64,000 bases of DNA from Nemertoderma westbladi (taxonomy: Eukaryota; Animalia; Xenacoelomorpha): contig JAUCBJ010001372.1 of the NCBI GenBank assembly GCA_032718475.1, forward strand, positions 2,706 through 66,705, read 5' to 3'. The notes beneath the pieces were generated by a model. That model worked only from the letters and a program-made list of their open reading frames with translations. It searched no databases and was not told the DNA's origin. Of the stretch, positions 1,254-60,006 are shown in pieces. The position numbers and the translations under genes were made by a program. Each line of letters opens with the position of its first letter. The stretch's first letter is position 1.

Positions 1254-1800
1254 TGTTAGCTTATTCAATCCCGCTAACACCCCATAAAGTTAAGCCGATA
1301 AGCAATATTGGGGGCCACGAGATTGGGTAATCAACCAACTCGTGCCACCCCAACAAAATGGGAAGGAGAAACACAATGAGGGTCAGGGGCCAAACCCCTA
1401 ACCCAGAGAGAACAGGTGGAGTGAACGGGAACACTCCAAAGGGCGCCAACAAGGGTATCAACCAATCAGAGGGGGGAAAGGCATCGATTAGGTAGAGTAA
1501 CAAGGCCAACCGTGCAATATAGCCACTTGGCAGTAATCATTTCAGTTCAGTTATCTCAGTATCATATTGGTGCTAGTTAGGTTAGTTAGTTTAGCTAGGG
1601 AAGGACCGGGACTTTAATTACCGTATCCCGCCTTCTGTATACGACAACATTATCCATATACCTATATCTATATACCCTATATCTATATCAGTTATTATAT
1701 ACGACGAACGACACGAACTCCTAATACCTTTCATACACACGGCGGGGACGCGTAAACTAAACAACCGGATAAACCGGGATCCTTCCTGGATCCCGTCACA
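1254..1800 (+). repeat. 5' LTR of Bel/Pao element
   Basis: TGTTAGC...GTCACA; matches 11850-12396 with two substitutions found by eye. Confidence 0.97.
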
Positions 1801-1862
1801 GTAATTAAATCCGAGCTGTTCCCCTAGCCAGCTAAACCACCAGCCACCAATCACCAAGCGAG

Positions 1863-4800
1863 ATGAGCCAGTCGGGAGAGACAACGCCGACGCGGACCCC
1901 GGACGAAGAATTAACGATCCGCGAGGCCGCAACCAGGCGGTACAGGCCCACAACGCCGGACCCATCGGTAACGGGTCATCCGGCAGTCCAGGATGAGGGG
2001 GGCCGCCTGGAACCCGAGGTCGAGCCAAGAGAAGGAGAGAGCGAGACGGAGGGAGACGGAGACGAGTCGACACGAGACGTGGGTCGACGTACCGATGTCG
2101 CCGGCCAGCCACAGGCCGAGGGCGACGAGCGGCCCACCGAAACGGCGACGGTGGGGCCGACGGTACGACGCCGGACCCGAAGAGACGGAGGAGATGTCGG
2201 TACCGATGTCGCCGGCCAGCCACGGGCCGAGAGCGACGAGCGGCCCACCGAAACGGCGACGGTGGGGCCGACGGTACGACGCCGGACCCGGAGAGACGGA
2301 CGAGAGGTCGGCGACGAGGACGTCGGGGTTTCTGATCGACTTCGACGGGCCTACAACGCGACCCGGAGACTATTAAAGGAGGCCAGAGGAGGGGCGACGA
2401 TAGACAAGGTAAAACTAAAGAGAGGACTAGGTGAGTCGAATAGACACTTTTATTATCTAATGCGCTTCGGGCAAAGAGGACTGGCCGAGGAGAGAGCGAG
2501 AGGGGTTGCCGAGGAACTGTATGACTTATGGCGGTATGGGGGTATAGAACCTAGCGTAGTGTACGTAGGGCCGTACTTAGTCGATGCCCGGGGAGTAAAA
2601 TTAGTGGGTTGGGAGAGACCTGAGGAGGACGAATCCGAGGTTAACCCCGAGGATTCAGCCTCGTCGGTCGGAGGAAGTTCCGGGAGGCGGGGGAAGGTTA
2701 GTAGGACGGGGAGGCGGAGGGAATCCGTTACAACCGATAAGTCTGCTACATCCTCCGTGAAAGAAAGACGGGTGAGAGAGATAAATGCCGCGTACCGTCT
2801 CGATTTAATAGAGCAAGGTCAAAGGGAAGTAGGTAGACGGTTAGAGGAGGGGAGAGTGCTGCTAGAGAGGGAAATGGCGTTGATTAAGGAAACCGGAGAG
2901 AGGGCCGAAAGGGCCGCGAGAAGCCTTAGGGAGTGTGAGGAAGTAGGGAGGAAGGAACAAGAAGAGCGCGAGGCGAGAGAGAAAATTGAGCGCGAAAGAG
3001 CGTGAGGCGGAATGTAGGGAACGTGAGGTGAGGGAGAAAAATGAGCGCAAAGAGCGTGAGGCGAAAGAGGAAAACGAGTGCAGAGAGCGCGAGGAGAGAA
3101 AGGAAAACGAACGCAGGGAGCGTGAGGCGAGACGAAGGGAGGGGGCTAGAAGAGAGTTGGAATTGGCCGAACGGGATGCACGGGAGTGTAAGGAGAGAAT
3201 GGCAAGGAAGGAGTGTGAGCAAAAGGAACTAGAGAAACGTCAAGGTGAGCTTACAGGGTACAAAGCTGTACATACGCGCGAACGGGAATTGGCGCGAGTA
3301 GGGGCGTCTGAGAGTGGGGCTAGCTCGAGTATTTTCGAGGAGCCAGGGGCCGTGGATACATTTATTAATACCCCACTTACAGGGACCGCACGACAGACCC
3401 AAGACTGGTGTGACCGTACGGGCGGGGGGGGGGGGGGGGTAATAATAATGCTATAGTAGACGTCGTTAATATTAATAGTACCGTATGGGATAACTCTAAC
3501 CAAACCTTTATTGCAGCAAATAATGCTTTACCTAGTAGCAGTAATTTAAATTTAAGTACAAATAATAATTTCAATTTGAACGTGCAAAATAATTCAAATA
3601 ATTTAAATAATGATCCAAGCCCGAATTTACAAAATAATTCAAATGATTTTGTTTCAAACGAACAAATTAATTCCGTTTCCAATATGGGTGCTATTAACAT
3701 GAACACGTCGGGCGTGTATGGCCAGGCAGACGGGGGCCTGGTAGGCCGTACAATTGGTAGGTCGGAAGTGGCGGGATTGAGCCAACCCAGAGAGGGCCTG
3801 GTAGGCCACGTAGTTGGTAGGCAGGGAGCGGCTGGGTTGGGTAGACCCAGTGAGGGCCTGGTAGGCCACGTAGTTGGTAGGCAGGGAGCGGCTGGGTTGG
3901 ATAGACCCAGTGAGGGCCTGGTAGGCCACGTAGTTGATAGGCAGGGAGTGGCTGGGTTGGACAGACCCAGCGAGGGCCTGGTAGGCCACGTAGTTGGTAG
4001 GCAGGGAGTAGAGGGCCTGGTAGGCCACGCAATAGCAGAGGGGGAGGCGGGGGTGAATAGACCCGACCGCGGTAGGGTTGATGTGTCGACTAGAGAGGGA
4101 TATAGTAGCGGGGTGAGGGATAGCGAAGTTAGATGTGGCGAGTGGGGGGGGGGGGCTACAGGGGCCCCACAACAGCGAGTTAGCGGCGAAAGGGGGGGGG
4201 GCAGGGAGTGCTCCACAGCCGTCAGCGGATAATGCGCGGGCCGAAATAGGTAAACCGCAACACCCGGCGACGGAGAGTAATAGGGGGATTGCGAGTATCC
4301 CCAGCGGCGTGCGACCGAGCAGAGAGAGACAGGTTGACGTCGTGAGAGGGCGGACGAAGCGTCGAGCCCGATCAGAAGAGGGAAGAAGAACAGTGGGGTT
4401 TAACCGGGAGGTCGACGAGAGATCTCACGAGCGGGAATACTACACTGAAAGGAGAGGAAGAGAAGACAGTAGTAAAAGTATCGCCGCGAACGATAGAAGA
4501 GCGAGGACGGATAGCGAGCCGTCGGTAGTCGAGATGAGAACGGAGAGTCAGTGGGGTCGGACTCCGGGAGATTGCCGTCGCCCCGGAGAGATGCGACCTG
4601 GCGAGGTGCATTACGCGCCGATGGAGGGGTACACGATGTACCGGTACGAAGACGAGAACAGTAGAGAGGGAGGTCGAAGAGAAACTTTCCGACGGAATGT
4701 ACCTACCGATCGAGAATACGGTAGCCGCGGGGAGGACTATTCGAGAAGAATAAACTTCGATCCCGAGCGACACATGCAGACTGTAGGACATACTGTAGGC

Positions 4801-5118
4801 CTTACTGCACATACCATAGGCCATACTGAGAGAGGCAATGTAGGCGATAGGATAGCGCGGACAACGGGATTAAACCCGGAAGTCGCGGAATACATACCGG
4901 CGGGTAGGCCAGAAGCTGATAGGCCTATACCGGTACCAGTACAGCAGTATGACTACAGCATGCAGGGACATAACATATACCCAGGGGAGGGGGGAATTAT
5001 TGCGGATAGGTGTATGGGCCCCAACATATTAACATCAACCCCAGTACCAAACATACCGGTGGGGGGGGGGGACAGGGTGACATTCCCCCATCACAATATC
5101 AACAATATACCCCGATAG
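1863..5118 (+). CDS. Long low-complexity/coiled-coil N-terminal extension of Gag, split over several frames
   Basis: ATG at 1863; same-strand ORFs 1863-3005, 2986-3456, 3576-4232, 4135-5118 run into the gag ORF. Three breaks coincide with long G runs (~3424-3439, ~4144-4201, ~5061-5071). Contains a 111-bp duplication (2089-2300), an E/R-rich stretch and 60-bp repeats (~3730-4030). Confidence 0.65.
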
Positions 5119-7772
5119 GAGCAAGAACAACGAGACCTTTGGATGAAAATAGGTCGTGTGACACAGAGATATGGAGGGGGCCGCTACCCCCGATGACATA
5201 CCCAAGTCAAAGAAGATCAAGAAATAGGACGGACGAACCGCACCAGACAGGAGAAACTATACAGCATCCATCGAACCCATTGGAAGTGCAGGCGATGGGG
5301 ATGGCCACGTTGATCGATGCGTTGAAAACGAGGATCGAGTTACCACCCGTGGAACCATTCAAATTCGATGGGAGTAGGCCGGAAGAATATCTACAGTTTC
5401 GGCGCATGTATAGTAACGAAATACTAACAAAAAACTTGACGCAGGCGGAGTGCCTAAAGTATCTGCAAGTATACACGGGAGGCCCAGCATACGATATCGT
5501 GAGGCAATATCAAGGAATAGAGGGCGGCTTCACGACAGCATGGCGGGCACTGGACAGGGAATACGGGCACCCGGCCAAGATCATCAGACAGACACTGAGA
5601 GGCATAACATCGGGTGGCCTACAGGATAATCCCGTTAGCATTAAGACGTTCGCTAACAAGGTCGAAAAGGCGCTAATCGTGCTGAAGACGCTAGACGCGC
5701 CATACGAGCTCAACGCGTCCAATAACATCACCACGATAGCACAGGCACTACCAAACTGGCTGCGCAACAAGTGGAGGAAGATCGCTTTCTCCACTCGAGA
5801 CAAGAAGGGTGTGGAACCGGGTTTAGAAGAAATGTCAAGCTTCTTAAACTACGAGGCTGAACTAATAACTGACCCAGTCTATAGCGAAGATAGCCTGGGA
5901 AAGGGACCGAAGACGGATTACCATAGACCGAAACCAGAGCACAATACATCAAACGCATTACCGAGGCTCAGGCAATCATTGCCATATGCAGCGACGCAGG
6001 GGACTGCAAGTCCACAGCTAGCCGAAGATAAGACAACACCATGGAACGGACAGGGGAACAATAACAACACGAATAAATATAACCCCAGTACGTCCAGTAG
6101 GCCGAATCCAAACAATAAGAATAGTAGGGACTTTGGTACAAACGCAGCTGCGATACGCAATGCACTGTATAAAGAGGGCTACGACCCAAAGAGCAAATGC
6201 CAGCTACACGCAAATGCGCTTCATCAAACCATGAACTGCAGGTACTGGCAGGCGCTACCTAGGCAAGATCAGATAGATTATGCGTTGAGCAATAAAATCT
6301 GCTCGCGATGTGTGATGAGTGGACATAGAGCAAGGGAATGCAAGGAGAAGCCGGTCAAGTTTGGTCAGAGGAGAGGCCAAACGATGGCGACGAGCACAGT
6401 AGGGGCGAAGAAGAGAGGAACGGTGTTACTTGGAGTAGTACCCGTGCGAGTGATTGGGGAAGGCAATCGATCAGTAACAACACTAATGCTGGTCGATAGT
6501 GGAGCTGCCTTCACATTAGTCGAGGAATGGGTGGCCGAAGAGATAGGATTGAGAACGAGGCCAAGCAGAATGGCGGTAACAACCATCTCTAGCAAAGATG
6601 AGATCCTGGAGATGAGAACAGGACGGTGCGCAATTGCAGCAGTGGCACCGGGATGCGACTATGGGGCAACCATCGACCCCATCCAAGTGATAGAGTCAAT
6701 TAATATCAATGCCAGGCGGCCAACCAACATCGAGGTCGAGCAGTATAAATTCCTGGACGACATTGACTTCTCAATCCCAGATGTGGACGTTAGGAAGGTA
6801 TCCATCATAGTAGGAATGGACTGCCCAACGGCCCACGAAAGAATGCAAACGGTCTTCGGCGAAGACAAGCAGTGTGACCCGGTGGCGATATTAACACCAT
6901 TCGGGTGGACACTGACAGGCCCAATTAAGAGTAATATACCATTCCATGTGTCTGAGAGTTCAGGATGCATGGTGCCAGGAACTGTCGACGAGATAGAGGA
7001 GAGGCCAGAGATGGGCAATAGTGGTAGACAGCTAGAAGTGGAAGCAACACCAAGAGAGTGGGCGGAGGAGAATGGCATGGATGCAGAAGATCTAGAGACG
7101 ATGGGTTGGAACAAGAGTCCCAGCAAGCATCGGTATGGAGATGGAGAGGAGCGGACGGCAAAATGTCCGGGGGACAGGCCGGAGGAGTGTCCGGAAGAGA
7201 TGCCGGTCCGGTTGGGAGGCATGCCGACAAGGGGGAGGCCGAGCAGGAGGACTAAATGGAAAGGGAGAAGATTTGAGACGACCAGACCAGGGGCTGAGAA
7301 GCCCGTGGGTGGGCGTGTGATGGACAAAGGAGCCGGGAAAGTAGGAGGCGTGCTGCATACGCACGCGGGACTGACAGAGTGCGAGGGGGCATTACATGGG
7401 CAGAGATCGTGTATACCGAAGGACGAACGGGGGTCGTCGAGGCCTTTAATGCCAGCACACATATTAAGGGGGAGGCCAGCAGAGGTGGCATCTAAGATTA
7501 AGGAGAAGAACAGGGGCGGCATTATACCGCCGGGCGACACGTTGAAGGGTGGCACTTTGCCGCCAAGGGACGACCACGAGATCAGAAACATAAATAACAG
7601 ACAGCATTTCCAAAGACAGGAGAAAAGGCCACCAGAATTGACAAGGAGAGCGGAGCGAAGAATTAGAGGACCTGTGGGGTGGCAGTGGGAGAGTTGCCTG
7701 CTGGAGGAATCACCCCTTGGGTCGCTGAGTTGTCCAATAGGTTGGACTGGGATGGAAGAGTTAGATCCATAA
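5010..7772 (+). CDS. gag: Bel/Pao Gag core, zinc knuckles, aspartic protease and degenerate integrase remnant
   Basis: IELPPVEPFKFDG...YLQF, CLKYLQVYTGGPA, REYG (DUF1759-like); CQLH..H...C and CSRCVMSGHRAREC knuckles; LVDSGA protease; ILTPFGWTLTGP Pao motif; later LTECEGALH..RPLMPAHILRGR resembles the integrase C-terminal part. No YxDD RT motif. Confidence 0.88.
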   Translation: MYGPQHININPSTKHTGGGGGQGDIPPSQYQQYTPIGARTTRPLDENRSCDTEIWRGPLPPMTYPSQRRSRNRTDEPHQTGETIQHPSNPLEVQAMGMATLIDALKTRIELPPVEPFKFDGSRPEEYLQFRRMYSNEILTKNLTQAECLKYLQVYTGGPAYDIVRQYQGIEGGFTTAWRALDREYGHPAKIIRQTLRGITSGGLQDNPVSIKTFANKVEKALIVLKTLDAPYELNASNNITTIAQALPNWLRNKWRKIAFSTRDKKGVEPGLEEMSSFLNYEAELITDPVYSEDSLGKGPKTDYHRPKPEHNTSNALPRLRQSLPYAATQGTASPQLAEDKTTPWNGQGNNNNTNKYNPSTSSRPNPNNKNSRDFGTNAAAIRNALYKEGYDPKSKCQLHANALHQTMNCRYWQALPRQDQIDYALSNKICSRCVMSGHRARECKEKPVKFGQRRGQTMATSTVGAKKRGTVLLGVVPVRVIGEGNRSVTTLMLVDSGAAFTLVEEWVAEEIGLRTRPSRMAVTTISSKDEILEMRTGRCAIAAVAPGCDYGATIDPIQVIESININARRPTNIEVEQYKFLDDIDFSIPDVDVRKVSIIVGMDCPTAHERMQTVFGEDKQCDPVAILTPFGWTLTGPIKSNIPFHVSESSGCMVPGTVDEIEERPEMGNSGRQLEVEATPREWAEENGMDAEDLETMGWNKSPSKHRYGDGEERTAKCPGDRPEECPEEMPVRLGGMPTRGRPSRRTKWKGRRFETTRPGAEKPVGGRVMDKGAGKVGGVLHTHAGLTECEGALHGQRSCIPKDERGSSRPLMPAHILRGRPAEVASKIKEKNRGGIIPPGDTLKGGTLPPRDDHEIRNINNRQHFQRQEKRPPELTRRAERRIRGPVGWQWESCLLEESPLGSLSCPIGWTGMEELDP

Positions 7773-7939
7773 AAGGTGCGGGCAGAGGTGTTACCTGTCT
7801 GTTAGAAGGGGCACCTTAGTGGAGTTAGAGAAGAGTTTAGTCGTCCAAGCTTTGGACTGAGGGGGGTGGGATTGAGGGCGAGACGCCCTTCCCATACATA
7901 AAAAAATAAAAAAAAATAAAAAAAATAAAATAATAGTAC

Positions 7940-8640
7940 ATAGTAGGTACGCAGTTAGTAGGCAGGAGTTAGTCAGTAAGAAGGTACGTAGTACCTAGAG
8001 TTAGTTAGTTAGTTAGTTAGGAGGTACGTAGTACCTAGAGTTAGTTAGTTAGGAGGTACGCAGTACCGTTAGTTAGAGAAGAGTTAGAGGGTACATAGTA
8101 CCTAGAGTTAGTTAGTTAGGAGGTACGTAGTACCGTTAGTTAGAGAAGAGTTAGAGGGTACGTAGTACCGTTAGTTAGAGAGTTAGAGGGTACGTAGTAG
8201 CGTTAGTTAGAGGAGAGTTAGAGGGTACGTAGTACCGTTAGTTAGAGAGTTAGAGGGTACGTAGTACCTAGAGTTAGAGGAGAGTTAGAGGGTACGTAGT
8301 ACCATTAGTTAGAGAGTTAGAGGGTACGTAGTACCGTTAATTAGAGAGTTAGAGGGTACGTAGTACCTAGAGTTAGAGAGTTAGAGGGTACGTAGTACCG
8401 TTAGTTAGAGGAGAGCTAGAGGGTACGTAGTACCGTTAGTTAGAGAAGAGTTAGAGGGTACGTAGTACCGTTAGTTAGAGGAGAGTTAGAGGGTACGTAG
8501 TACCGTTAGTTAGAGAAGAGTTAGAGGGTACGTAGTACCGTTAGTTAGAGAAGAGTTAGAGTTAGAGGGTATGTAGTACCGTTAGTTAGAGAGAGAGTTA
8601 GAGGTAAAAGGGTATATGAGATATAGATATTAGTTAGCAG
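7940..8640 (+). repeat. Tandem array of ~28-33 bp units (GAGTTAGAGGGTACGTAGTACCGTTAGTTA) inside the LTR element
   Basis: Visible repeats, each with the imperfect palindrome GGTAC-GTA-GTACC. Confidence 0.95.
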
Positions 8641-9080
8641 TTAGTAGCGAGAGGGGGGCATATGAGTACAGCTGGGTAAATCGTGTGGCCACACGACGCA
8701 TACTGCTGTACTGCTGTACAGGCCCACAGTGTAGGCCAGAATGTGGATTAGAGAATAGAACAATCCATAGGCAATAGTAAGTAGTAGGACAGTAGAATTA
8801 AAATTAAATAAAAAATAAATAGAATAGGGCTGAAAGTTGCAAATAATGGTGTAAAACAAGGAAAGTTATTCTGGAACATAATTAAAGTAACGGACAAAAA
8901 ATGAGCCTAATTTACTCATTTACTAGCTTCAAAATTAATTAGTAACAATTTAGGTTAAAAGGCGCAGTTAAGTAAGAAATAGGCCATTATCGGACCGTAC
9001 AGAACATCCTAGATACATCACTCATCTGTATTGCGCCTTGGTAAGGCACCACCTTGCAGGTGAGCGAGTGAGTGTTCGGA

Positions 9081-11138
9081 ATGGCGAGCAAATTGATCAG
9101 AAAGAGAAAGGCGGAGTCAGGAGGAAAGGAGATACTGGTGGATTTCACCGAGAGGCATCCGGAAGAGAAGACGAGAGGATACTACGAGAGGTTGGAAAGG
9201 GGTCACGCGGCACGAGCGCTGCATGATCGCTTCCGGGAGATGCACGAACAGCGGCTGGTCGGGACCTACGGGACGCCGTCGCTGGACAACGCGATCTTCC
9301 AACACTTCCACTACGTGGTGAAAGGGGACGAGGCGAAGTTCGGGATTCCGAAGTACCCGAGGGAATCACCGAGGAAGGACTGGAAGAGATTCATAGAGTC
9401 CGTCAACAGGGGAGGATATATGATCCTAGACGACGAGGGAACCGTGGAAGACGAGGAGGGTTCGAGACGAGGATCGGCGGGGTCGGCCAGGACCATACTC
9501 CTACATTTGGGGGACATTACATTACAATGGGGACATCTTCTTATTCGATCTAGGAACGTATGGGAAGAAGGACGGGCCGAAATTAAACCGGTTACCGAAA
9601 GCGGTACAAGTCTTGGTAAGAGAGAAGTCGACGACGAAAGTAGGATCGGCGATTCGCGAGGATGCGGAGAGAATCATCGGTCCGGACGCCACCAACCTCC
9701 TGGATATGCAGAAGGTCTTTATGGCTATGACGGCACCGGATGGGTTGGGGGTAGTCGAAAACACAGGCCAATGCGGGGCGGTGGCAATGGGCCAATTATT
9801 GGGGCTCGTGTGCCACAAACCGATGGATTGGGGGAAGTTCAGGGAAGAATACGGAGCAGAACTAGCGAACTCGCTAAAGTGGGGAGCGAGACCGGGAAAG
9901 CAAGAGGTATATCAATTCCGCAGAGGAGCGATAAAGGTATATCAGAAGCGATATATCCTGCAGGAAGATTGGATGATGATAAGTTTGCTTAACTTATTTA
10001 TGACCGTGGTTATCGAGAGGGAACCAGGGGCATTTCTGTTATCGGGATCACCCCTAAGCTACAGGAGAGCCTTTAAAATGGCCTTCGACGGTCTGGTAGA
10101 CCACCCGGGGCTGAAGGGTGAGTCGGTGTACTACAACAGCCAGCATCTGGTAGACGGGGAGACGGATACGCCGTATCAGAGATGGGAGCAGCTAGAAACG
10201 GATAGACGAGAAGCGAAGCGACTGGAAGAAGTCGCCAGACGGGAGAGGATAGAAGCAGAGGAGAGGGAAGAGGAGGCCAGGACACAGAGTTACGGCTTCA
10301 AGGAACAGGCAGGCTTAGACGAGCTTCATTGGACTTCGTCAGGGAGTTCGGGGGAGTCTCTAGGGCGAGAACTGGGATGGACGGTGGGATCACCGAAACA
10401 GTCGACGTCGGGGTTGCAAATGACGCCCATACCAGCGGGCGCCGAAGGCGACCAACCGCCAAGGAAGTTAAGGGAGCTAGAGGGATGGAGAGCTACGGGC
10501 GAGAGCCAAGGCGGGAAGGGACATAGTGGATCCATCGGGATACCGGGGTTGGAGCCACTGCCAGAGGAGGAAGAGGACGACGACGAGTTCGGAGGGGTGC
10601 CGCCCATCGAGAGGATTGGCCACTCGGACACGGACTGGGTTGGCGGAAGGGTGGTGACGGCCAGTGGGGCGATGGCCTTCTGGAACAGATCCGGCAAGTG
10701 GACCTGGGTGCACTCTTCCTTATCAATCAGGAGGCTCACATGGAAATCATAAAGCGGAGGCTACCGTTTACCTATCAAGAGGTAGCAATGGCGGCGTCGT
10801 ATGCCGGAGTAATGAATACACAAAGATATTTGGACAGATGGACGCCACAGAACCGAGGGGAGTTTAGGGATTTCTTGGCGGAGCACGTACCGCAAGCAAT
10901 GAAGATGATCCTATGGGACGCCACCAGAGGGAGACAACAGGACCACTCTGAGGAGCCACCGGCGAAGCGATATCGGGCACTAATAACACCAGCGCCCAAG
11001 GAGCCAACAACCAGAATCAGCAGGGAGGTGGCGGCGAAGGTCCGAAAGCAGATAGCGGATCCCAGAGGAGCGGTGGTAACCAAGAAACGACCCAGGGAAG
11101 AGGACGCCAGGGGGAACTATCCCCAGAGGAACAGATAG
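9081..11138 (+). CDS. Extra ORF (~680 aa if two frameshifts are repaired) with a DEDDy/WRN-EXD-like 3'-5' exonuclease domain
   Basis: Joining 9081-~9520, ~9520-~10680 and ~10680-11138 gives ILDDEG (Exo I), LLHLGD..IFLFDL, LPKAVQVLVREKSTTKVGSAIREDAERI (Exo II), NLLDMQ, GQLLGLVCHKP, QKRYILQED (Exo III-like). Confidence 0.72.
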
Positions 11139-11840
11139 GTTCCCAGGGCCGAGGGAGAGAAACTGGGACTTGGACGTGGTACGCCTGGAAGGCGCCGCGT
11201 GGGACGTACGAACTATTAAGTACAAATCTAATTAATGCAAATAATCATATAAGTGCAATTTGTATGTACGTACGTAGTAATTAGTAATCTACAAATATAC
11301 GTTCGGAGTAAGTACTATAGTCATACAACCTTTCTCAATTAGCTACTGGGACTGGGGGGATAACTGACTATGGCACTATGGACGAGACACCAGACAATTT
11401 CACACTTCTTGAGTGCGACGGCACAAGAGGGGAGGGAGATTCGTCAGAAGGGATGAAGCAGTCGAAGTGGGGTTGAGGAACGGAACAATAGTGCGAAGTG
11501 CGGAGAGAGTGCGGACGCAATTCTAGTGTGTGGGGGGGGGGGAGAATAAGAGGCTGAGTGAGGGACGAGGAGGTCCGAGGGTATGAGAGAGTTAGGGTGA
11601 GAGTGGAGAAGAGATAGGGCGAAAGTGTTGGGGAAACAAAAGTCGCGTGAGAGGTGAGCGCGATTGGCCCGACATGAGACGCCAGGCATATAGGGTAGCG
11701 TTATCATACCCATAGGGAGCGGCCTGGAAAGCCGGCTCCGAGAGAAAAGAATTCCACCCCACACCCGATACTAGATCGGGATCCAGCGGGATTGTAGCGC
11801 ACTTAAGGTGGATGCTATCTTCTCACCGGGAAGATAGCAT

Positions 11841-11849
11841 GGGGGGGAG
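11841..11849 (+). promoter_or_regulatory. Polypurine tract of Bel/Pao element
   Basis: GGGGGGGAG directly abuts the 3' LTR start at 11850. Confidence 0.9.
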
Positions 11850-12396
11850 TGTTAGCTTATTCAATCCCGCTAACACCCCATAAAGTTAAGCCGATAAGCA
11901 ATATTGGGGGCCACGAGATTGGGTAATCAACCAACTCGTGCCACCCCAACAAAATGGGAAGGAGAAACACAATGAGGGTCAGGGGCCAAACCCCTAACCC
12001 AGAGAGAACAGGTGGAGTGAACGGAAACACTCCAAAGGGCGCCAACAAGGGTATCAACCAATCAGAGGGGGGAAAGGCATCGATTAGGTAGAGTAACAAG
12101 GCCAACCGTGCAATATAGCCACTTGGCAGTAATCATTTCAGTTCAGTTATCTCAGTATCATATTGGTGCTAGTTAGGTTAGTTAGTTTAGCTAGGGAAGG
12201 ACCGGGACTTTAATTACCGTATCCCGCCTTCTGTATACGACAACATTATCCATATACCTATATCTATATACCCTATATCTATATCAGTTATTATATACGA
12301 CGAACGACACGAACTCCTAATACCTTTCATACACACGGCGGGGACGCGTAAACTAAACAACTGGATAAACCGGGATCCTTCCTGGATCCCGTCACA
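11850..12396 (+). repeat. 3' LTR of Bel/Pao element
   Basis: Near-identical to 1254-1800, followed by TSD TTTAC. Confidence 0.97.
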
Positions 12397-12519
12397 TTTA
12401 CTTTGTTTGTATGGAGAGATGAAAACATTTATTGTACTTTGCCATATTGTAAAACAAATAAATTGACAGTGCCAGTTGCCTGCTGCCATGTTTTCCTCTA
12501 TTTTATTGACATTCAACTC

Positions 12520-14996: not shown

Positions 14997-15799
14997 TTAT
15001 ATATTTATAAACTTCCTAAAGTTTGAATTAGTGAAGATTCTGCTCTTCTGAGTAGATTTGAGAAGCTCAGCAGAAGATATTGTGTTGCTGCTGTTGATCC
15101 AAGCTTCATTCCCATGCAGCCTTTCAGGTGGAATCCCTGCATTTGATCTGGTAGATCTTCTCAGCCCGGGTTCATTCATTGTATTTTTGGTTAGTGGTTG
15201 AGGCCTTGCCTGGGGAGGCTTGGCCTGTTTATCCTTGATAGGAGTAGGAGGTGTTTGTAATCCCGTGTTTGATGGTGATGTCAGTTTCGCCGGTGTTGAT
15301 GGTTGATGTGATATACTGCACTGGGACTAGCTTCCCTAGCACTTTTCAAAGGTGACTGTAACTGATCACAGACTATTTTCGCCCGATTCACATCAGAGGG
15401 CATGACATGGGTAGGGCTATCCTCTTCCCTATCTTTAGGCATTGAATTGGCTGTAGGAGTGGCCTGCTGTTGATATTTGCTGTCATATGCGGTTTGAGGT
15501 AGTTGAGGTGGATCTTGGCATGCCTGATGATGTTTTGAGTCTATAGTGGCTGGGGTGTTAGCGGGTGTTCCCCAGTTAGGTACGACCATCCTTGTAGTTG
15601 GGTGTCCATAGTTAAAAGGATCTATTTTTCGCAGAAATCTTCTGTTCCGGAGGGTTAATCTACGCGAACCCTCCAAACATACAACATATTGATCATTATC
15701 CCTAGTCTCCATGATTCGACCAGTGCGGTCCCACCTGGTGGGATTGTTTCCTGACTGATTCTGGACCCGAACAATGTCACCCACCAGGAGGACAGGTAA
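14997..15799 (-). pseudogene. Integrase C-terminal tail of Gypsy pol beyond an in-frame TAA
   Basis: After TAA at 15800-15802 the same frame reads LPVLLVGDIVRVQNQ..RWDRTG..RNRRFLR, then a P/Q-rich tail and LRRSTR...P.RL in another frame. Confidence 0.75.
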
Positions 15800-18700
15800 T
15801 TACTTGGATTTTGCATCTAGTTTTTCCCATTGTTTAGCAAGTCTGGTGCGGAGGGCAATCTCCTTCTCATTCCAAGTGTCCTTCCATGTCTGATGCACCT
15901 GACTCTGTGGCCCAAATACCTGTTCATTTGGAGGTAGAGGGAGAGTATCCCTCAGGGTTTTGCCTAAGAGGACTTGAGCTGGCGACATGCCACTATCTTG
16001 CTCAGGTGTGTTTCTAAACTGCAACACACCACGTAGGAACTCATCTGTGTTCAGGTCACCTGAGTCGCTGGTGTTGTCCCTAAGAAGCCTCTTCATAGAC
16101 TTAACTGCCACCTCAGCCCTACCATTTGACTGTGCAAAGTATGCTGATGATTGCCTGTGTGCTACACCCCATCTCTTAAGAAAATCTGTAAATTCCTTAG
16201 CTGCGAACTCAGGGCCCCCATCACTCGAAATTTCTATTGGAACTCCATATGCTCCAAAAAGTAGTCGTAATGCCTGTGTGAGACCTTGGGATCCACAATT
16301 CTCATTCTTTCTTGTGATATGGAATATACTCGGCCAATTTGTGAATCTGTCAACAGTGACCAAGTAGTAATTACCTTTGAGGTGGAAGTAGTCAGCGGCA
16401 ATGGATTCAAATGGCATGGAAGGGGTTGTAGGCTCAGCAGGAGGCAAGCTTGACTGGCTGGGAGCAATAGAATCACATGTGGTGCATTTTGACCGGATAG
16501 TCTGTATATCTGAAGTAATCCCTGGCCAGAACACTGATGCCATAGCTCTACCTGTCATTTGAGTTGTCCCCTGGTGTGCTCCATGAAGGTGTTCGCAGAC
16601 CTCATCACGGAGGCTCGGTGGAATAACCACACGGTCTTTATACATTACAACACCGTCTGTGACAGATAAATCATCCCGGTATTTCCAGTACTGGATCAGC
16701 TGTGGGGACAGATTGCTTGCCCTCTCAGGGAAACCATTTTCTGCCATATCTATAAGCTGAAGAAGATGAATGTCTTTGTTTGTCTCATCTCTGACCCTTT
16801 CCCAAGTTACTGCCTTAAGCTTGTCTAAACCAGACCTGGCAGCGGCAATAATGGCATCCTCAATGTCATCTATTTCACGAATAACTCTGATGGTTGCTAG
16901 GCAATCATCTTCAATGCCTATGAGAGTTTCGTCAGCCTCTAAGTTGCTAGGGTTTCTCGATGTTGCATCAGGGGCAGGGATATTTTTCCCAGGTACATGG
17001 AAGATTCTGAATCTCCATGACATTGTTTTCTCCTTCAAGCTAAGAATTCTTCTGTTTGTTATCTCATCCAGTAACCTGTCACCAAGTATTTTGATAAGTG
17101 GTTTGTGGTCAGTCTGGATAATAAGATCTGCGCATCCCCATGTAAAGAACTTAGTATCCTCTAGTGACCATGCAACAGCGAGACATTCACCCTCTATAGG
17201 CCAGTAGTTTTCCTCAGCCTTCTTGAGGAACCGTGAACCTGCTAGTGTTATCCTCCAGCCACTTGGACAACATGTAGTAATGTCAGAATTACATTCACAG
17301 TATTTCTGGTAAAGGAAGTAACCAATCCCCTTCTTGCACCAGTCTGGGCTAAGGCAGGTCTTCCTCGATGGGTCAAATATTTCTACACCCTCTATGATAG
17401 CCTGGCTTATCTCCAACTTAGACTGAATAAAAGAAGCCTCCAGGTCATCATTCCAGTGGAATCTTGTCTTTGGACTGAGGAGAGGCTTGAATGGGGACAT
17501 AAGGCCTGTGAGACGACCATAGTGTGAGACCTGGTTGACCAGGCCAAACCATGCACGAACATCAGTTATGTTGGTAGGTCGTGGGAAATTCTTGATTGAG
17601 TCAATATACTTGGGGAGTGGCTTGACATTGTTATTGGTAAGAAGGAATCCTGCAAACTCCACAGACTTTTGGCAGAATTGGAATTTCTTGGGATTTAGGA
17701 TTATCCCATGTTTCCCCACGAGGTCCAGGTAGTCCATAATCCTTCTCCAATGTGTCTCCAAGTCATTGTCCCATAAAATTGTGTCATCGACACATTTCGA
17801 CTTTCTTTCTACATCAGCTATGAGCTTATCATATCGCATGTTGTACCCATCACCACTGGAAAGGTACCCCTGGGGGGCAACATTGTAATGGTATCGACCA
17901 TTCTCTGTGATAAAGGTTGTGAGGTGTCGGTCCTCTTCCTTTAATGGGACAGAGTGATATCCATTCCAGGCATCAGTTACTGTTCTGTATGTATTGCTGG
18001 GTACAATCCGTGCCTGTTTGAATGGTGGAATCAAGTGGTATGATTCTCTGATGCAAACTTTGTTAAGTGGTCTGAGGTCAATGGTCCTTCGAGGTGAACC
18101 ATCCGGCTTCGGCACAACATGCATTCTGTGACACCAGGTGGTAGGTGTCCCTGGCTTTACTTTAGACAAAACTCCTAGAGCCTCATCCTGATCAAGCAGA
18201 GCCTGGACCTCCTCTCTCCAATGGATTGGCACAGTTGCAGCAGTGTGCACTGCATGTGGAGTGGCCTCTGGGTCAATATGTATTGAAATAGGTGGGCCAG
18301 ACATCATGGGCAGACGTTGGTGCGGACACCTATTGAATGTGGATGCAGAATAGTGTTCCAATAGCCATTGACGCATCTTAGTGATATTTTCCTCCCTGGC
18401 AGGGAAGGGAAATTCCTTTGGTTGGGGTGGTGGCTGTTGGTGATAAGGGCATCCACATGGAGCTGTTCCATTCAAACCAATACTACCTTTGGCATTGTCA
18501 CTGACTCCACATACTGATGCAGACCCAATCTTAGGAAAATCATTTCCAATTATCTGGAGTTGTTGCATAGCCTGTTTACTCAGGTAGAACAGAGATGTTG
18601 AGTCAGTTACATATGCCATTATTGCTGTTTGGAGTTTTTTACCACTATCAGGGTTGACTCCGGATATGCGTAGGAAGATGGCTCCTAGTATATGGATCTC

Positions 18701-20007
18701 CTCATGGTTGATAGCCCGTAGCCTATTCTTTACATGTGCTAAGTCTTTCTTCTTGAGTCCTAGGTGGTGTAGCATCTTTAGACCAATGAGGTTGGATTGG
18801 GCACCTGTGTCAGTTATAGCTTCAATTGATGTGGGCCTTATCTTAGGGAAAGGAAGCCGGAGGTGGCTATAGTCAGATTGGTCAGTAGTCACTATCAAAT
18901 TTATCCGTGGCTGGGAACTAGCTGCTGCATTTTTCCAACCATCGGTACCATCGAAAATAAAATTGTCCAAACCCACTGTAGGATGGCCTTCTCTAGTTGA
19001 GGCCAGTTCAAACTTCATTGACGACATGAAGTTGAAAAAAGCATTGTTTTCTGGGATGGTTGAATTGGATTTTGTGCTCATTGTCATAGCTTTCCGACTA
19101 TTGGACTGTCGCCAGCAGGCTTTGCATTTGGGAAAGGTAAGGAGTTTGTCATCTTTCCCCTTGCTGCCCAAGCGTATTTTGTGTTTGAGAAACTCTTTTC
19201 CACATTCCTCACACTTTGCTTTCAATAGGAGTCTTTTATCATTTGGATGAATCTTTTTGAAACTGAATGTGGCTGCTTGGTTTGATTCATGGCCTGGTTG
19301 AGGGGCTATAGATCTGATGGCACGCTCCTTTGTTTCAATTAAGGCAATTGTGTCGACCAGACTCATTTCATCCATTTTGTCAGTCCCAAGGACTTCAAGC
19401 TTGATATCTTCATCTGCCAGTCCTGTTATAACGACTAATTTAATGATAGCTTGACTGTAGTCGACCTTCAGATTACAACCGCCACATGTCTGAGTGAATC
19501 CACAGGTCTGGGCCTTTCCCCTAACCCTGGCAGCAAACACACGAATTCGTTCACCATGGTCTTGTCGCAGTGACAGTAATTCTGTCTGTTGGACAGAAAT
19601 GGCCACAGAGACAACTGCCAGCTTTTTAATGGCTGCCAATAATTCAGCCTCTGACTTTGTGTGTGCAGTGGGATCATCCCTATGGATGTCTGACTTGAGG
19701 TCACTATCACAGCAGTTTAACAGGTGGACTGGAAGGGAAGCTGGGTTTATAGTTGTTGCCGACTTGAATATTTCCCACTCCCGCTCAAATGCATTCCAGC
19801 TATCCTCATAGATTCCCCCCTTAACCTTAGGTGCCTCAATCTTGGGAGCCTTTTGCTTTGCCGCTGGTGCGGTAGCCTCAGCGTGATCGGCATCAGGTGG
19901 GTGGGTGGACTGTAGGTGGTGCTGGAGCATTACTGCCCCGGCAGCGTCAGCGACGTCCGGGGTCCTAAACCCACAGTTATGGCGATGTGGCAACGAATAG
20001 TCGGCAT
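15800..20007 (-). CDS. pol: Gypsy Gag-Pol polyprotein
   Basis: DTGA protease; DAWNGY, APQG, CVDD RT; DWCKKGIG/EGECLAV/TDHKPL RNase H; H-x2-H...CTTC and ADYF/SDGGPEF/NGRAE integrase. Likely true ATG at 20007 (MPTIRC) with a frameshift near 19980. Confidence 0.95.
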
Positions 20008-20093
20008 TTTCAATAAGTGCTTACTTCTAGGTCTAGCCTGAACGCTGAACATATAGCATTTCAAATCACCATATCATTACAGTATATGTATCA

Positions 20094-24615: not shown

Positions 24616-27129
24616 TTCAGGTGTGGGGCGAGCCACGTATTTGGCAAAGAATCTGTTTAATGATACTATTAGGTGGATGGGTAAATAATACTTGTAAATA
24701 ACTAGCCCAAACAACGTCCAACCTCTTAAACCAAACAATTAGATTCATTTATATTTAATCATTTAAATGATATTAAAAAAAAATGTAAAAAACAACGCGC
24801 GATTCTATGAAACTCTGAATCAGTTACTAATAGTACGGGCTCTGACGGCGTTAAGCGCAATACCTTCGGAAAATTAACGAGACTATTATTTTTGGATGGA
24901 GGACCATGTTAGACGTCAGAACACAGTTGGTGATCGGTATAGCTAATTTGCATTCTAGAACTACAGGCCAAAAACAAGCTAGCTAGCCGACCCCTACCTA
25001 ACTCTATGTTGGGCCCTCTGGTTGAATATAAATGCAATCATTTTTTTCAATTGAACAGTTTTCTTATAGAGGGAAGACCGGCGATTAATTTAAATACAAA
25101 TATATCGCCACTTTTATTTTTTAAATGCGATAAATTTACATGAGAACAAAATACATTCACTTTTTTTAAGAATCCAACATTTACATTAACTGCCATAAAA
25201 TGTAGCTACTTTGGTTTAACACGTTCAAACATGTATCAAAATTTGCGCTAATTATATCTGCATTCACCCATGCAACTCATTTTGGATGAGTACTAAATCC
25301 TCCTAGTCAATTAGCCCGATTATTATCGGGGAAACGATAATCAGAGAATATTCAGAGAAAGTATACTCTCTGACATTTGGAAATATTTACTACAGTTACT
25401 AAGGTAACTAACTATTCTGTGAACGGCACTCCCTTACTGTACATGTATTACCTGGCGTTGTGTAGTTTCCAGGCGACTGACTGTATACACTAAACACGCA
25501 GGCACAATCAAGTCGTTTTAAAGCAGCCCCCTGTGTTTTTTTTTAATAAGAGTTAGTAGTTTACAGTATGTACCGCCGATGTTCTTAAAAATTTAGCAAA
25601 TCCCGCAAGGTATTGCGAATTAGTGATTTCGAAATGCCAACAGAACTAAAAGACTGCGGGCCCAAACTCACAAAAAGTGGCCAAAAACGTTTCCCAAACG
25701 ATTCGACTTAATTTTAGAATGAAATTTTTTTTGGAACCTAGTAAAGTTATATATATTTTTGAAGATAATTTTATGGTCCAACAGATACACAAAAAATCAT
25801 GCTGCCACTACGACTTTGAAAGATTTTACAGACCTTTTAGTACTAAAAAATGCAGGTTTTTCAATTGTCCAAAAAAGTTCATTGCATTGGGGGGGATGTA
25901 TTTTGACATCTACTGGGTGTATTTCAACAAGTTATAGCTCATTTTAAAGCTAAATAATAGAGGAATGCAATTGAATAACTTCCAAATTGTTTTATTGATA
26001 TCATATTTAAATAAAACAATAGATAATATACCCCTATTTTTGTCAATTACTTGTCCCAAACGGTAACAACTGAATTCACCAATAGGTTTTTATTTGGATT
26101 CTATAAACTAAATTCTTATTTGAAAGGAAAATCTTCAAGAAGTGGAATGTTCCAGATTTTACGAAAAAATACTAAACACAACCAGAGATATGGCTGGTTT
26201 TATACGTGCGAGTCGATTATGTCAATTAGGATTGTCCCATGTGTAACACCAAGTGCACTGCTTTACCATGCTCTAGAATCAGTTCTAACAAACTTGATAT
26301 TAAGATTCAAATATCAGAAGATAGCCAAGTTCTTGGTCTTTTGCGTGAGTAATCATTTGTTGCAACAATTGACTATGGAATAGACTTTAGTTGCTTTTAC
26401 ATTTATCAGCATGAGCTTTGTCCCACCTGTAACAAAAGCCTGTAACACAAAAAATCGTTACAAGGCGGGACGTCCCACATGTAACATGTAAATCGAATAA
26501 TTTTGGGCTACAGAATGGGACATGTCTTACCTGTAACACTTTAGTAGTGCAGACTTTATAATATTGATAGGACTGTAGGTCATGCACACAGAACAGCACT
26601 ATTAACTGTGAATTGGTACTTACCTACCTACAGTTGTACCGGTAACAGTAACAGTGCTGCCTCTTTATTGCGTTTGATTCGAAGTTATTGGATCTACAGA
26701 TCTGCGCAGTGCATAGAGTTTACTGTTGACTACTAAACAAACTAATCCTAACCAGAACCAGTTATAAGACACTGATACAGACACTATGTGACTACGGTAT
26801 AGAATAGAGACCACATTTCATTACTTATTATTAGACATCAGTTTGCCGTTCCGGTATCAAGATACTGATAGTAAATAAAAATAGGACTAATAATACTGAT
26901 CTGTCTTATATGGAATGCGGTCCATCTTAGATCTATCTTCTGCGATTGGGAGAGGGAGATTGGGAGCTCCGTGAGGGGAGCAGTTAGAGGTGGGGGGGGG
27001 GGAATAGAGGTCTAGGGGAGCAGTTGGAGGTGTGAGGGGAAAGGTAGAGGTGCAAGTGGACCAGTTGGAGGAGCGAGAGGACTAGTTAGTGCGAGAGCAG
27101 TAGGTAGAGGTGCGAGAGGAGAATGGGAG

Positions 27130-27620
27130 GAATTGTGGAGGGTGTGGGAGACAGGGTGAGAAGTACATGAGGATCTGTGGAGGGTGTGGGAGACAGGGTG
27201 AGAAGTAGAGGAGGATCTGTGGAGGGTGTGGGAGACAGGGTGAAAAGTACAGGAGGATATGTGGAGGGTGTGGGAGACAGGGTGAAAAGCACAGGAGGAT
27301 CTGTGGAGGTTGTGGGAGACAGGGTGAAAAGAGCAGGAGGATCTGTGGAGGGTGTGGGAGACGGAGTGGGAGACGGAGTGGGAAGTACATGAGGATCTGT
27401 GGAGGGTGTGGGAGACGGAGTGGGAAGTACAGGAGGATCTGTTGAGGGTGTGGGAGACGGAGTGGGAGCTATGGGAGGATCTGTGGAGGGTGTGGGAGAC
27501 GGAATGGGAAGTACAGGAGGATCTGTGGAGGGTGTGGGAGACGGAGTGGGAAGTACAGGAGGATCTGTGGAGGGTGTGGGAGACGGAGTGGGGAGTACAT
27601 GAGTTTCTGTGGAGGGTGGA
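27130..27620. repeat. 42-bp purine-rich minisatellite (GAGGATCTGTGGAGGGTGTGGGAGAC...)
   Basis: Visible tandem units. Confidence 0.93.
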
Positions 27621-28249
27621 GAGGAAACTGATGAACAATTTATAGGTTTTGACTAACTGCTCAGCCATAGTGATATACAGTTATAAACTCGGTAATAAAC
27701 TCGTCATACTTTGTGAATTTTCATATAAATCGTCCGTCACTAAAGTACCTAAAGTGGTTAAAATGTTTTATAAACTCTTTATGTTTATTTGATAAACTAT
27801 AATATTTTATAATTTTTCGAGAAATGGGGACCATAAAGATTTATTATGATTGATTTTATTATCAAATAAGCTTTATTGGGATGTGTTACTGGGATCAGGA
27901 ATGGCTGCATAGCTCCCACTCAGAGACGAATTCTAGGTTAAGTTAACATATCAGTGTAATTACAACTGGTGTTACATAGTGGGACAAATTGTTACAGGCA
28001 TCGGAAATCACCATTCAAGGGCTCTGATTGGCTGATATCGGGCGTTACATTGTGGGGCAAGTGTTACAGGAATGGATATCTGTTTTTCTCAATTATTTGT
28101 TACCATGAGGTCGGGGCTATTGGGAAATTACCACCATTGAATTCAGCGCATCGAGAGCTTTCTGGTGATATATAATATTACATACTTTGGGAAACTTTTT
28201 TTTTTTTACAAAAAAAATAATTTTTTTGGCCAATTTTTTGTGATTTTGA

Positions 28250-28820
28250 GCCTGCGTACTAGGAGTACACGCTTTTACAGGAAACGATCAGGTTTCATCA
28301 TTCTTTGGAAAATCTAAAAAACGCTGTTGGAAGATAGCTGAAAAGCGTTCGAACTTCAGAAGAATATTTGCCGAGCTTGGAAGCTCGATAATATTAACTG
28401 CAGAGACGGAATTGGTGTTAGAGAAGTATGTGTGCTCACTGTGTTCAACCAAACAAGAACAACATTGGACTGTCAATGAGCTTAGATACCAGATTTTTAA
28501 TTTACACTGCCTAAAGAAACATAGATGCCATGACTTGTCAACAATGCCCCCTTGTAAAAGAGTACTTAGTCTCCATATAAAACGAGCCAACTATGTTGCT
28601 TACCTCTGGAAAGCATCACTAAATAATATTATCGCGATAAATAGATTCACAGACCATGGCTGGAATGATGATGGATCCATCCACTGGTAGGATGAGTATT
28701 TATTTCCCTTATGACATCAGCAATATTTTGATAAATTGTGACGAGGAACAAGAAGGCGGCAAAGATAATGGCTGGCGAAGATAGTGAAACGAGCGATGAG
28801 GATGAAGCAAGTGATTAGTT
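28250..28820 (+). pseudogene. C-terminal remnant of Academ-type transposase (XPG/FEN1-like H3TH region)
   Basis: GVHAFTGNDQVSSFFGKSK, LEKYVCSL, VNELRY, MPPC..L.LHIKRANY.A.LWK, HGW...IHW. Confidence 0.8.
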
Positions 28821-30552
28821 TAGGACAACTTTCATGATTCATTTGGCATTATTGCCAATGCATTTACATTATACTGTATTAGTAGTAATATATTATATTT
28901 ATTGATAATTACTAAAATTAAATAGTTAAATAAGCAGCAAAGTTCTGGCGACAAAAAGGCTCTGCAAATCTGATTGCACTACCGGATGCTAAACTTACTA
29001 CGTATATGTGGAGACATACTGTAGGACAGTGAAGTAGAACATGATGTTCGTCCTGTACAGCTCAGTTGTCGCACTGACAGACTAATGAAGAATTCTAATG
29101 AAGAATTAAGTAACTTATAACCAGGAGTGTTTGCATTCTTACATAATTTGAATATACAGTGGAAAGGAATATCCATCCATATCTATGTTCTTAAGCATTT
29201 ATGTAATAAAATTTTTCATAGGCTTAAGAATACGTTACCTTAATGGTGGAACCCCCAATTAGACTAAACAGAGTTCTATAAGAATTTGTACACGGACATT
29301 TAATAGTATTTTACCATCCTACACGCCTTCCATTGTTGATATATTTATTACCTTACAGAAAACTATATAAGATATTACTTTTCCTTTAATACACTCGATT
29401 TACTGATATACCTACTTACTTATATTGTAATATATTCATTGATTGCATGGCATTTCTGTTCTGTACGTTTCGTTTATGGCAAATTATATTCCCTCTGGTA
29501 AACAAAATTTGTTGCTGTTAAATAAATAATTACAATTATATTGAAGAAATGACAATTTATTTTAGTAAATATTATTTTCCTAATTGCTAAGAATATTATA
29601 ATATATAAGCTACTGTAGTAGAAAAGTTTGAAAGCGAAAGTATAAATTCTGACTCTCAGAATATCAGTTCCATCTTTGTATTATTTTTAGAAGAATTTGC
29701 AACGATCTGTGACTCAGTTTATGTATAAGCGCATGAATTTTGTATAATACATTAAAAAACAATTAATATAATGTAAGGAATCGCCTACACTGGTACACAA
29801 CATAGGCCTACAGTACATATAGTTGCCTAGTAACTGTAGTAAATATTTGCAAATGTCAGAGAGTATACTTTCTCTGAAAATTCTCTGATTATCGTTTCCC
29901 CGATAATAATCTGGCTAATTGACTAGGAGGATTTAGTACTCATCCAAAATGAGTTGCATGGGTGAATGTAGAAATAATTAGCGCAAATTTTGATACATGT
30001 TTGAACGTGTTAAACCAAAGTAGCTACATTTTATGGCAGTTAATGTAAATGTTGGATTCTTAAAAAAAGTGAAAGTATTTTGTTCTCATGTAAATTTATC
30101 GCATTTAAAAAATAAAAGTGGCGATATATTTGTATTTAAATTAATCGCCGGTCTTCCCTCTATAAGAAAAATGTTCAATTGAAAAAAATGATTGCATTTA
30201 TATTCAACCAGAGGGCCCAACATAGAGTTAGGTAGGGGTCGGCTAGCTAGCTTGTTTTTGGCCTGTAGTTCTAGAATGCAAATTAGCTATACCGATCACC
30301 AACTGTGTTTTGACGTCTAACATGGTCCTCCATCCAAAAATAATAGTCTCGTTAATTTACTGAAGGTATTGCGCTTAACGCCGTCAGAGCCCGTACTATA
30401 ATATGCGTGAGTCAAAATGGGCAATTTACTTCCATTCAATTTCAACGGATTTAGATCCTAGACACTCATTATGCTCAAAGTGTAAACGGATTCAATTCCG
30501 ATACATCATCCACCCGAAAATGGGAGCAGTGGCATTTTTCCAATATAGTTGG

Positions 30553-58705: not shown

Positions 58706-59125
58706 ACAAGCGGGTCCCGGAAGGAACATTGACTGAATGATTCCATGGAGGGAAATTTAAATGTAATAGTTGACTACTATCGCCAGTTGAGTTAGACACT
58801 AACACATTTAGGCAGTTAGGTATTTGTATTATAACAATAAATGTATTTCAGTGTTATTGTCATCTACAACTTTTAATATTGAATGGAAGACTCATCGACA
58901 TCCTGTAGTATTTGTGACAAATTATTTTCATGTGTCGGTAATTTAAACAAACATCGTAAAACTCTTCACGATCAAGAAGTTGTTCCCGTTAGAGGTCGTA
59001 AGAGGAAATGCGAAGGAAGCGAAGATGACTCGTCGCCATCGGCAGTAATAGACTGCATGGTGTGCTTGTCATGGTGTGTGGTACCACGTTCACCAAGAAG
59101 AGTAACTTATATGTACATCAACGAA
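58706..59125 (+). repeat. Inverted copy of the upstream region and first ~76 codons of the MULE-SWIM gene (62776-63181)
   Basis: Near-identical reverse complement; encodes the same MEDSSTSCSICDK... start; has a 14-bp insertion. Confidence 0.93.
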
Positions 59126-59377
59126 CGTAACCGTCAGGGTTGATTAGTTGCTTGAGATCTTCTCCATCAAAGTCGGCGAACGCCAATACGGTGTATCCGT
59201 CAATTAGTCTTCCGGTCTTCCTATCTGTACGTCCGTCGTAGGATAGTGATGATATTGCGGGCCCATGTATCTTGGTTATAGAATTATATTCTAGAACTTT
59301 CGCCTGGAAACATGGCGTTAAATAATAAATATTAATATGAACATATAGTGCTCATAATATATATAGCGCATTTATTG

Positions 59378-60006
59378 ATGGGATGGGATGGGATGGGATG
59401 GGGTGGGATGGGATGGGATGGGTTGGGTTGGCGTTGGGATGGGTTGGGTTGGGATGGGTTGGGTTGGGATGGGATGGGGTGGGTTGGGTTGGGATGGGTT
59501 GGGATGGGATGTGATGGGATGGGATGGGGTGGGTTGGGATGGGTTGGGTTGGGATGGGATGGGATGGGGTGGGTTGGGATGGGTTGGGATGGGTTGGGTT
59601 GGGATGGGTTGGGATGGGTTGGGATGGGATGTGATGGGTTGGGATGGGTTGGGTTGGGATGGGATGGGATGGGATGGGATGGGGTGGGTTGGGATGGGTT
59701 GGGATGGGTTGGGTTGGGATGGGATGGGATGGGTTGGGATGTGATGGGATGGGATGGGGTGGGTTGGCGTTGGGATGGGTTGGGATGGGTTGGGATGGGA
59801 TGTGGTGGGTTGGGATGGGATGGGATGGGATGTGATGGGGTGGGTTGGGATGGGTTGGGATGGGATGGGTTGGGATGGGATGGGATGGGATGGGTTGGGA
59901 TGGGTTGGGATGGGTTGGGATGGGATGGGATGGGTTGGGATGGGTTGGGTTGGGTTGGGATGGGATGGGTTGGGATGGGGTGGGTTGGGATGGGTTGGGA
60001 TGGGAT
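59378..60006. repeat. (GGGAT/GGGTT)n pentanucleotide satellite
   Basis: Visible in sequence. Confidence 0.97.

Follow-up and report, generated by a model that had tools for sequence, protein, structure and literature searches.

Structure of the element

We analyzed a window of 64,000 nucleotides from Nemertoderma westbladi (contig JAUCBJ010001372.1), to which all coordinates below refer. Self-comparison of the window delimited an LTR element of 11.1 kb at 1254-12396, with two LTRs of 547 bp that are 99.6% alike. Since the LTRs carry only 2 differences, the insertion is recent. Outside the accessory gene described further below, the element is composed of the following features:

1249-1253, left copy of the target-site duplication, 5 bp, identical to 12397-12401 (a 6-bp test fails)
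1254-1800, plus strand, 5' LTR, 547 bp, with TG...CA ends
1801-1814, plus strand, primer-binding position, lacking a TGG-type tRNA site; weak complementarity of 1801-1809 to LTR 1613-1621
1836-5118, plus strand, four open frames that overlap one another ahead of gag, no Pfam family over the cut-off
5010-7772, plus strand, Gag with DUF1759 and a zinc knuckle, together with an aspartic protease; of Bel/Pao type as far as 6941 (Pfam, relatives)
7966-8604, tandem repeat array, unit length 32-35 bp, separating gag-protease from the accessory gene
11841-11849, plus strand, polypurine tract of 9 nt, in keeping with the about 10 nt of Bel/Pao elements
11850-12396, plus strand, 3' LTR
12397-12401, right copy of the target-site duplication

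The frames at 1836-5118 possibly represent one long, broken N-terminal extension. Internal repeats occur in them, as a pair of 111 nt at 2089-2311 and an array of 60 nt at 3734-4008, and so does a run of G at about 3421-3440.

With Bel/Pao elements the copy shares a DUF1759 Gag (Pfam E 6e-11 in ORF 5010-7772), an aspartyl protease in the same ORF, 0.55-kb LTRs and the 9-nt polypurine tract. All three long relatives found for this ORF contain PF05380 and are Bel/Pao polyproteins, so that Gag and protease are homologous to those of the superfamily. The 547-bp LTRs, with TG...CA ends, a 5-bp duplication and flanking genes, also lie within the Bel/Pao range of 0.2-1.2 kb. The likeness to Bel/Pao polyproteins ends at 6941, and the 276 open codons that follow the protease (6942-7772) have no detectable likeness to reverse transcriptase (RT), RNase H or integrase. 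None of these three enzymes was detected in the copy by tblastn and profile searches of all six frames. Of the Bel/Pao pol order (protease, RT, RNase H, integrase), the protease alone is detectable, and what the first-pass annotation of this DNA had called a pol remnant is reduced to it. Because pol is absent save for the protease, we class the element as a non-autonomous Bel/Pao-type derivative and not as a full member of Bel/Pao. A search of viral contigs with the Bel/Pao alignment returned no match.

Bel/Pao elements have an 18-nt tRNA-Arg/Gly primer-binding site, whereas TGG is absent from the first 30 nt downstream of the 5' LTR in this copy. The 9-nt complementarity between 1801-1809 and LTR 1613-1621 is equaled by 32 of 2,000 shuffled LTRs (p 0.016), and its duplex energy by 30 of 500 shuffles (p 0.06), which at the sequence level gives a weak hint of self-priming from the element's own LTR. 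A TGG site is found in three of the four other Bel/Pao loci with paired LTRs that served as controls. In one Bel/Pao locus with paired 419-bp LTRs (L125), the sequence after the LTR shows no TGG site and no self-complement.

Other mobile elements lie in the same window. By eye, we identified a neighboring Ty3/gypsy-like element with an uninterrupted gag-pol frame of 1,406 codons on the minus strand at 15281-20020. The elements at 58706-63181 and 24830-30399 have long terminal inverted repeats of 359 and 572 nt, respectively, and the former contains an ORF of 862 codons that by eye resembles a zinc-finger Mutator-type transposase.

An accessory gene in three frames

Downstream of the Gag/protease ORF and upstream of the 3' LTR lie three overlapping frames on the same strand, as the first-pass annotation had described:

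9072-9992, plus strand, open reading frame, accessory frame A
9430-10752, plus strand, open reading frame, accessory frame B
10527-11138, plus strand, open reading frame, accessory frame C

Along them, the accessory gene can be divided into these parts:

9081-9510, plus strand, frame A part, with ATG, basic cluster RKRK at 9099, an N-terminal part without assigned identity and a candidate Exo I D-x-E (9429, 9435)
9511-9525, plus strand, first break, at which frame A passes into frame B; private to this copy or its assembly and absent from 10 of 10 contigs that cross it
9526-10140, plus strand, frame B part that holds the DEDDy-like core (Asp 9661 of Exo II; Tyr 9952, Glu 9964 and Asp 9967 of Exo III)
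10141-10713, plus strand, frame B tail, with a charged helix (model helix 364-409) and a low-complexity region
10713-10714, plus strand, second break, a junction at which sister copies have additional sequence
10714-11138, plus strand, frame C, 141 codons, putatively coding, with two basic clusters (10956, 11085)

The motifs reported for the joined protein are all present and in the reported order. Frame A contains LDDEG (9426-9440) and LLHLG (9498-9512), and frame B contains IFLFD (9535-9549), STTKVG (9628-9645), EDA (9658-9666, with D at 9661), LLDMQ (9697-9711), LLGL (9796-9807) and YILQED (9952-9969).

The two breaks had been interpreted as frameshifts, the first at a duplicated motif. We find instead, at about 9511-9525, a local rearrangement rather than a clean duplication; all 10 contigs that cross it, from four runs and two samples, do so without interruption. 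Their gap counts indicate that frame A reads on into frame B. At the second break, 14 contigs from four runs start at 10714, preceded by unmatched sequence of up to 251 nt, and one contig ends at 10713. Since contigs start and end at 10713/10714, the studied copy likely underwent an internal deletion, rather than a frameshift that joins the third frame, and the fusion with frame C is therefore only putative. No language-model neighbor was found for frame C. The match of one contig of the X5 run breaks off at 9387, and the unmatched end looks, by eye, like the region near 10745, which may mean that the exonuclease core has been lost from some copies that keep frame C. Among the X5 contigs there is also a cover gap at 9442-9759, which is without evidential weight.

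The splice-like site at 9054-9064 is ambiguous. Its proposed acceptor (9054-9059) lacks a long pyrimidine tract and overlaps a donor-like site at 9058 that is just as good. The suggestion that the gene is not env held up. The best 19-residue hydropathy is 0.14 in frame A, 0.49 in frame C and 1.30 in frame B, where it corresponds to the helix after Exo III; frames A and C hold no TM-grade stretch. There are 2 Cys and 1 sequon in the 691 residues of the three frames. Comparison with the long C-terminal tail of the Bel/Pao polyprotein P0004, which is env-like by eye, detected no likeness, and the two are unrelated.

Likeness to DEDDy exonucleases

All 30 language-model neighbors of the accessory protein belong to PF01612, with scores of 0.92-0.93. 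A score of 0.9 is reached by 4-10% of shuffled proteins as well, and the shared-feature counts of the neighbors (162-169) fall just below the guide value of 170; we took these matches as a lead. For comparison, we relied on a reference set of WRN/Mut-7-like proteins from bacterial loci, found by an Exo III motif and widened with longer relatives. The structural relatives of the resulting profile include Mut-7/Nibbler, EXD2 and Rrp6. Scored with the 33-sequence WRN-like profile, frame B comes out at the top of 263 native ORFs (E 0.0027), and none of 1,000 shuffles reaches its score. This match covers the Exo II region and not the Exo III motif with which the set was seeded. Frame B ranks first also with a narrower bacterial profile (E 0.08) and second with an 8-sequence, eukaryote-only profile (E 0.13). 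In hhalign, its Exo II region aligns with E 0.0004 and a probability of only 36%; frame A alone gives no match. The significant alignment extends over only about 55 residues.

The candidate catalytic motifs differ in how well they stand out. The Exo II Asp lies in the K-x-G...D context of the family, within the region aligned by both the HMM and hhalign (E 0.0027 and 0.0004, respectively). The Exo III block at 9931 is equaled by 15 of 2,000 shuffles, and in place of the canonical Y-x3-D its Tyr aligns, Glu 9964 occupies the Asp position and an Asp adjoins it. The Exo I candidate D9429-x-E9435 is the third-best block in frame A and was aligned by eye; the best block is reached by 490 of 2,000 shuffles. 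That best-scoring block, at 9129, was rejected as an alternative Exo I because it reads D-x-x-E, is not significant and lies far upstream. The Exo I-II-III layout proposed earlier is thus clear at Exo II, not above chance at Exo I, and altered at Exo III by Glu for Asp. The spacing of Exo III had already been recognized as non-canonical, and indeed 97 residues separate it from Exo II, compared with 65-72 in the 33 reference proteins. Exo I and Exo II are about 77 residues apart, compared with 57-73 in the references. In the second strand, the accessory protein has His where the reference profile has Gln.

Searches for direct homologs were negative. The suggested check against PF01612 gave no match, and neither did any other family of Pfam, NCBIfam or PHROGs, with single frames or with an X read-through of the breaks. 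No match was found in a PDB sequence search, and no homolog of the accessory protein by phmmer over 1.84 billion representatives, by a word search of proteins of 242-770 aa, or in plasmids, metagenome contigs and viral contigs. The suggested AlphaFold and Foldseek check was uninformative: the two single-sequence models are unusable (pLDDT 37 and 33), with helix 364-409 as the sole confident part of the first, and the lack of a Foldseek match at E 0.001 for the second is meaningless.

Altogether, the accessory protein probably has a DEDDy-type fold, judging from its sequence. A DEDDy/WRN-like identity is likely rather than proven, and we do not class the protein as a canonical DEDDy member. The PF01612 neighbors and the first rank among 263 ORFs nevertheless support the proposal that a Bel/Pao-type element has captured a DEDDy/WRN-like gene that is not env.

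Conservation and copy number

The region 8700-11850 is matched by 6,818 and 4,099 contigs in two runs, most of them 90-99% alike. We classified the differences that these contigs show as silent or not, using the best-supported 40 of 363 rows in one set and 30 of 142 in the other, after dropping ten rows at the gapped break (9511-9524); two rows fell outside the ORFs. At 9526-10000, 31 of the 32 listed differences are silent in frame B, compared with 34% expected (p 5e-14), and only 4 and 2 of the 32 are silent in the other two frames. Frame A shows 12 silent changes among its 18 listed differences (p 0.004), while 2 of 6 are silent in the tail of frame B and 1 of 4 in frame C, counts that are uninformative. 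The rows are a biased, best-supported subset and the contigs are not independent events. Because the excess of silent changes is confined to one frame, it is hard to explain without selection. At the candidate catalytic codons (9431, 9663, 9966 and 9969), the listed differences are all silent changes at the third position.

The codon usage of the accessory gene correlates with that of gag-protease (r 0.66) and not with that of four ORFs outside the element (-0.24 to -0.33). A nested DNA transposon as source of the gene was rejected, as no terminal inverted repeats were found. Owing to this gag-like codon usage and to the lack of nested-transposon ends, we consider the gene a long-term resident of the element. 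No single contig joins the LTR and the accessory gene.

These comparisons indicate that the accessory gene is real, is under purifying selection and belongs to a high-copy, recently active family of Bel/Pao type. The ORF is thus neither unique to this copy nor evolving neutrally, either of which the first-pass annotation would have taken as evidence against its reading.

Just before the 3' LTR (11668-11850), the summed contig depth, which is not a copy number, is several-fold above that of the accessory gene. This suggests that related elements share this end and do not have the gene. In the X6 run, which carries a second organism label and may be an RNA run, eight contigs match as short pieces related to frames A, B and C and to the pre-LTR region (9117-11850), one of them through a spurious 35-nt match.

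Possible roles of the accessory protein

Our preferred reading, which we hold tentatively, is that the accessory protein shortens the element's own RNA from single-stranded 3' ends in the course of the replication cycle. It would act as a divergent DEDDy 3'-5' exonuclease, predicted to be active despite the Glu in Exo III. Enzymes of the DEDDy class stop at duplexes. Lying apart from gag, the gene would need its own subgenomic or spliced RNA, and the basic clusters at 9099, 10956 and 11085 may direct nuclear import of the product. One candidate substrate would be a self-derived primer, because the element combines the lack of a TGG-type tRNA site with a short complement to its own LTR. The copy would be mobilized in trans, because it has no detectable RT or integrase. 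We favor trimming of the element's own RNA because selection acts within the family and persists in a copy that has Gag and no pol. In its favor, a TGG site is found in three of the four control loci and an exonuclease in none of 31 other Bel/Pao loci. In addition, 3'-end processing of element RNA is named as a possible role in the accessible text of the paper on rotifer elements (PMC5408684). A separate ORF would not be packaged through fusion to Gag, which counts against this role.

A close rival, which we regard as somewhat doubtful, is a counter-silencing nuclease, directed in trans against the small RNAs of the host or against the precursors of these, which it would over-trim before they are protected, so that the family expands. 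The separate ORF in accessory position, the basic clusters and the very large size of the family would fit such a role, as would the Mut-7/Nibbler, EXD2 and Rrp6 relatives of the reference profile. The DEDDy ORF is also described as possibly tied to higher copy number in Juno1/2, and not in Vesta2/5, in the available part of the rotifer study (PMC5408684). However, a benefit in trans would be common to copies without the gene, and strong within-family selection would then be less easily explained. Mature piRNAs, moreover, are 3'-methylated and resist trimming. Taken to its full extent, this reading would have a Bel/Pao lineage capture an active exonuclease that destroys or mis-trims host piRNA precursors, causes the large expansion and is kept without pol; we consider this combination unlikely.

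It is also rather unlikely that the protein is a catalytically weak or dead DEDD-fold RNA-binding adaptor, comparable to EXD1, Maelstrom or Egalitarian, that exports, localizes or packages the element RNA. The Glu at the Exo III Asp position, the His for Gln in the second strand, the long insertions and the charged helical tail would all suit an adaptor. All four candidate positions are nonetheless acidic, with only silent changes among the listed differences, and the ORF3s of rotifer elements vary the motif as well (DEED) and are read as possibly active in the portion of the source at hand (PMC5408684).

The protein might be conserved and accessory, and resemble DEDD exonucleases only by chance. 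This would agree with the lack of curated-family or database matches and of a usable structure, and with the restriction of significance to about 55 aligned residues. We judge it improbable, since three partly independent signals agree, namely the language-model neighbors, the Exo II profile match and the ordered Exo III block. A neutral passenger or a nested insertion unique to this copy, which the two breaks and the lack of a contig joining ORF and LTR might suggest, is largely refuted and very improbable given the thousands of sister contigs over 8700-11850, the frame-specific purifying selection, the gag-like codon usage and the absence of nested-element ends.

Comparison with known systems

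Described Bel/Pao elements have gag, pol and sometimes env, in contrast to the 11.1-kb copy studied here, which has no RT, RNase H or integrase. The ICTV profile of Belpaoviridae describes gag, pol and env only (PMC8742986). In the accessible text of two Bel/Pao papers, the word 'exonuclease' is absent (de la Chaux and Wagner, PMC3118150, 0 occurrences; PMC12440569). We found no Bel/Pao element with a DEDDy ORF in the literature covered, a scope outside which lie most subscription journals, Repbase and supplements and which leaves such absence unproven. Among 31 other Bel/Pao loci (1,340 ORFs), no WRN-like ORF and no relative of the accessory frames was found, and the best WRN-like score was 4.1 bits, compared with 11.1 for frame B. 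As none of these loci has the gene, it is lineage-specific.

The Juno and Vesta LTR elements of bdelloid rotifers are of the Ty3/gypsy type and have an intact pol. The accessory gene differs from them in its setting, with Gag and protease of Bel/Pao type and pol missing. The precedent had been given as DEDDy domains in giant Gypsy elements; according to the sections consulted of Rodriguez et al. 2017, it lies rather in ORF3 of the bdelloid Juno and Vesta Ty3/gypsy elements and in Athena/Terminons (PMC5408684). As far as the same text goes, the rotifer ORF3 and the accessory gene share the ORF3 position, a non-env nature, DEDDy likeness, an altered acidic motif and the lack of a TM segment (PMC5408684). 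The motif is DEED in the rotifer ORF3 and apparently D-E-D-E here. A role in RNA 3'-end processing or silencing was proposed for the rotifer ORF3, so that, within the portion of the paper seen, both functional ideas precede our work and the novelty expected of the locus is confined to its Bel/Pao setting and selection signal (PMC5408684). The rotifer extra ORFs, in the available text, show no clear departure from neutrality, in contrast to the strong selection on the accessory gene (PMC5408684).

Further accounts, as far as their text was accessible, repeat the rotifer DEDDy ORFs or describe a DEDDy domain in Dada transposons (PMC6431247, PMC6338049, PMC3706591). Dada DNA transposons of Laccaria and Ectocarpus resemble the present element in that a mobile element carries a DEDDy domain, whereas theirs, in the part of the source available, lies inside the DDE transposase and is thought to process DNA ends (PMC3706591). 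With cellular members of PF01612 (WRN exonuclease, Mut-7/Nibbler, EXD2, RNase D and Rrp6), the accessory protein shares the order of the Exo II and Exo III blocks and a likeness in both. It is longer than they are by about 30 residues ahead of Exo III and by about 17 from Exo I to Exo II, has the Glu at Exo III and is too divergent for a Pfam match.

The arrangement of a non-env DEDDy ORF is therefore already known, and what is new is the Bel/Pao setting together with the selection signal. The rotifer work left open whether DEDDy ORF3s benefit the elements that carry them. Strong selection in a second LTR superfamily argues that the capture of a DEDDy enzyme is recurrent and useful, and the accessory protein would offer a concrete case for the processing of element RNA ends or primers and for interference with small-RNA silencing in animals.
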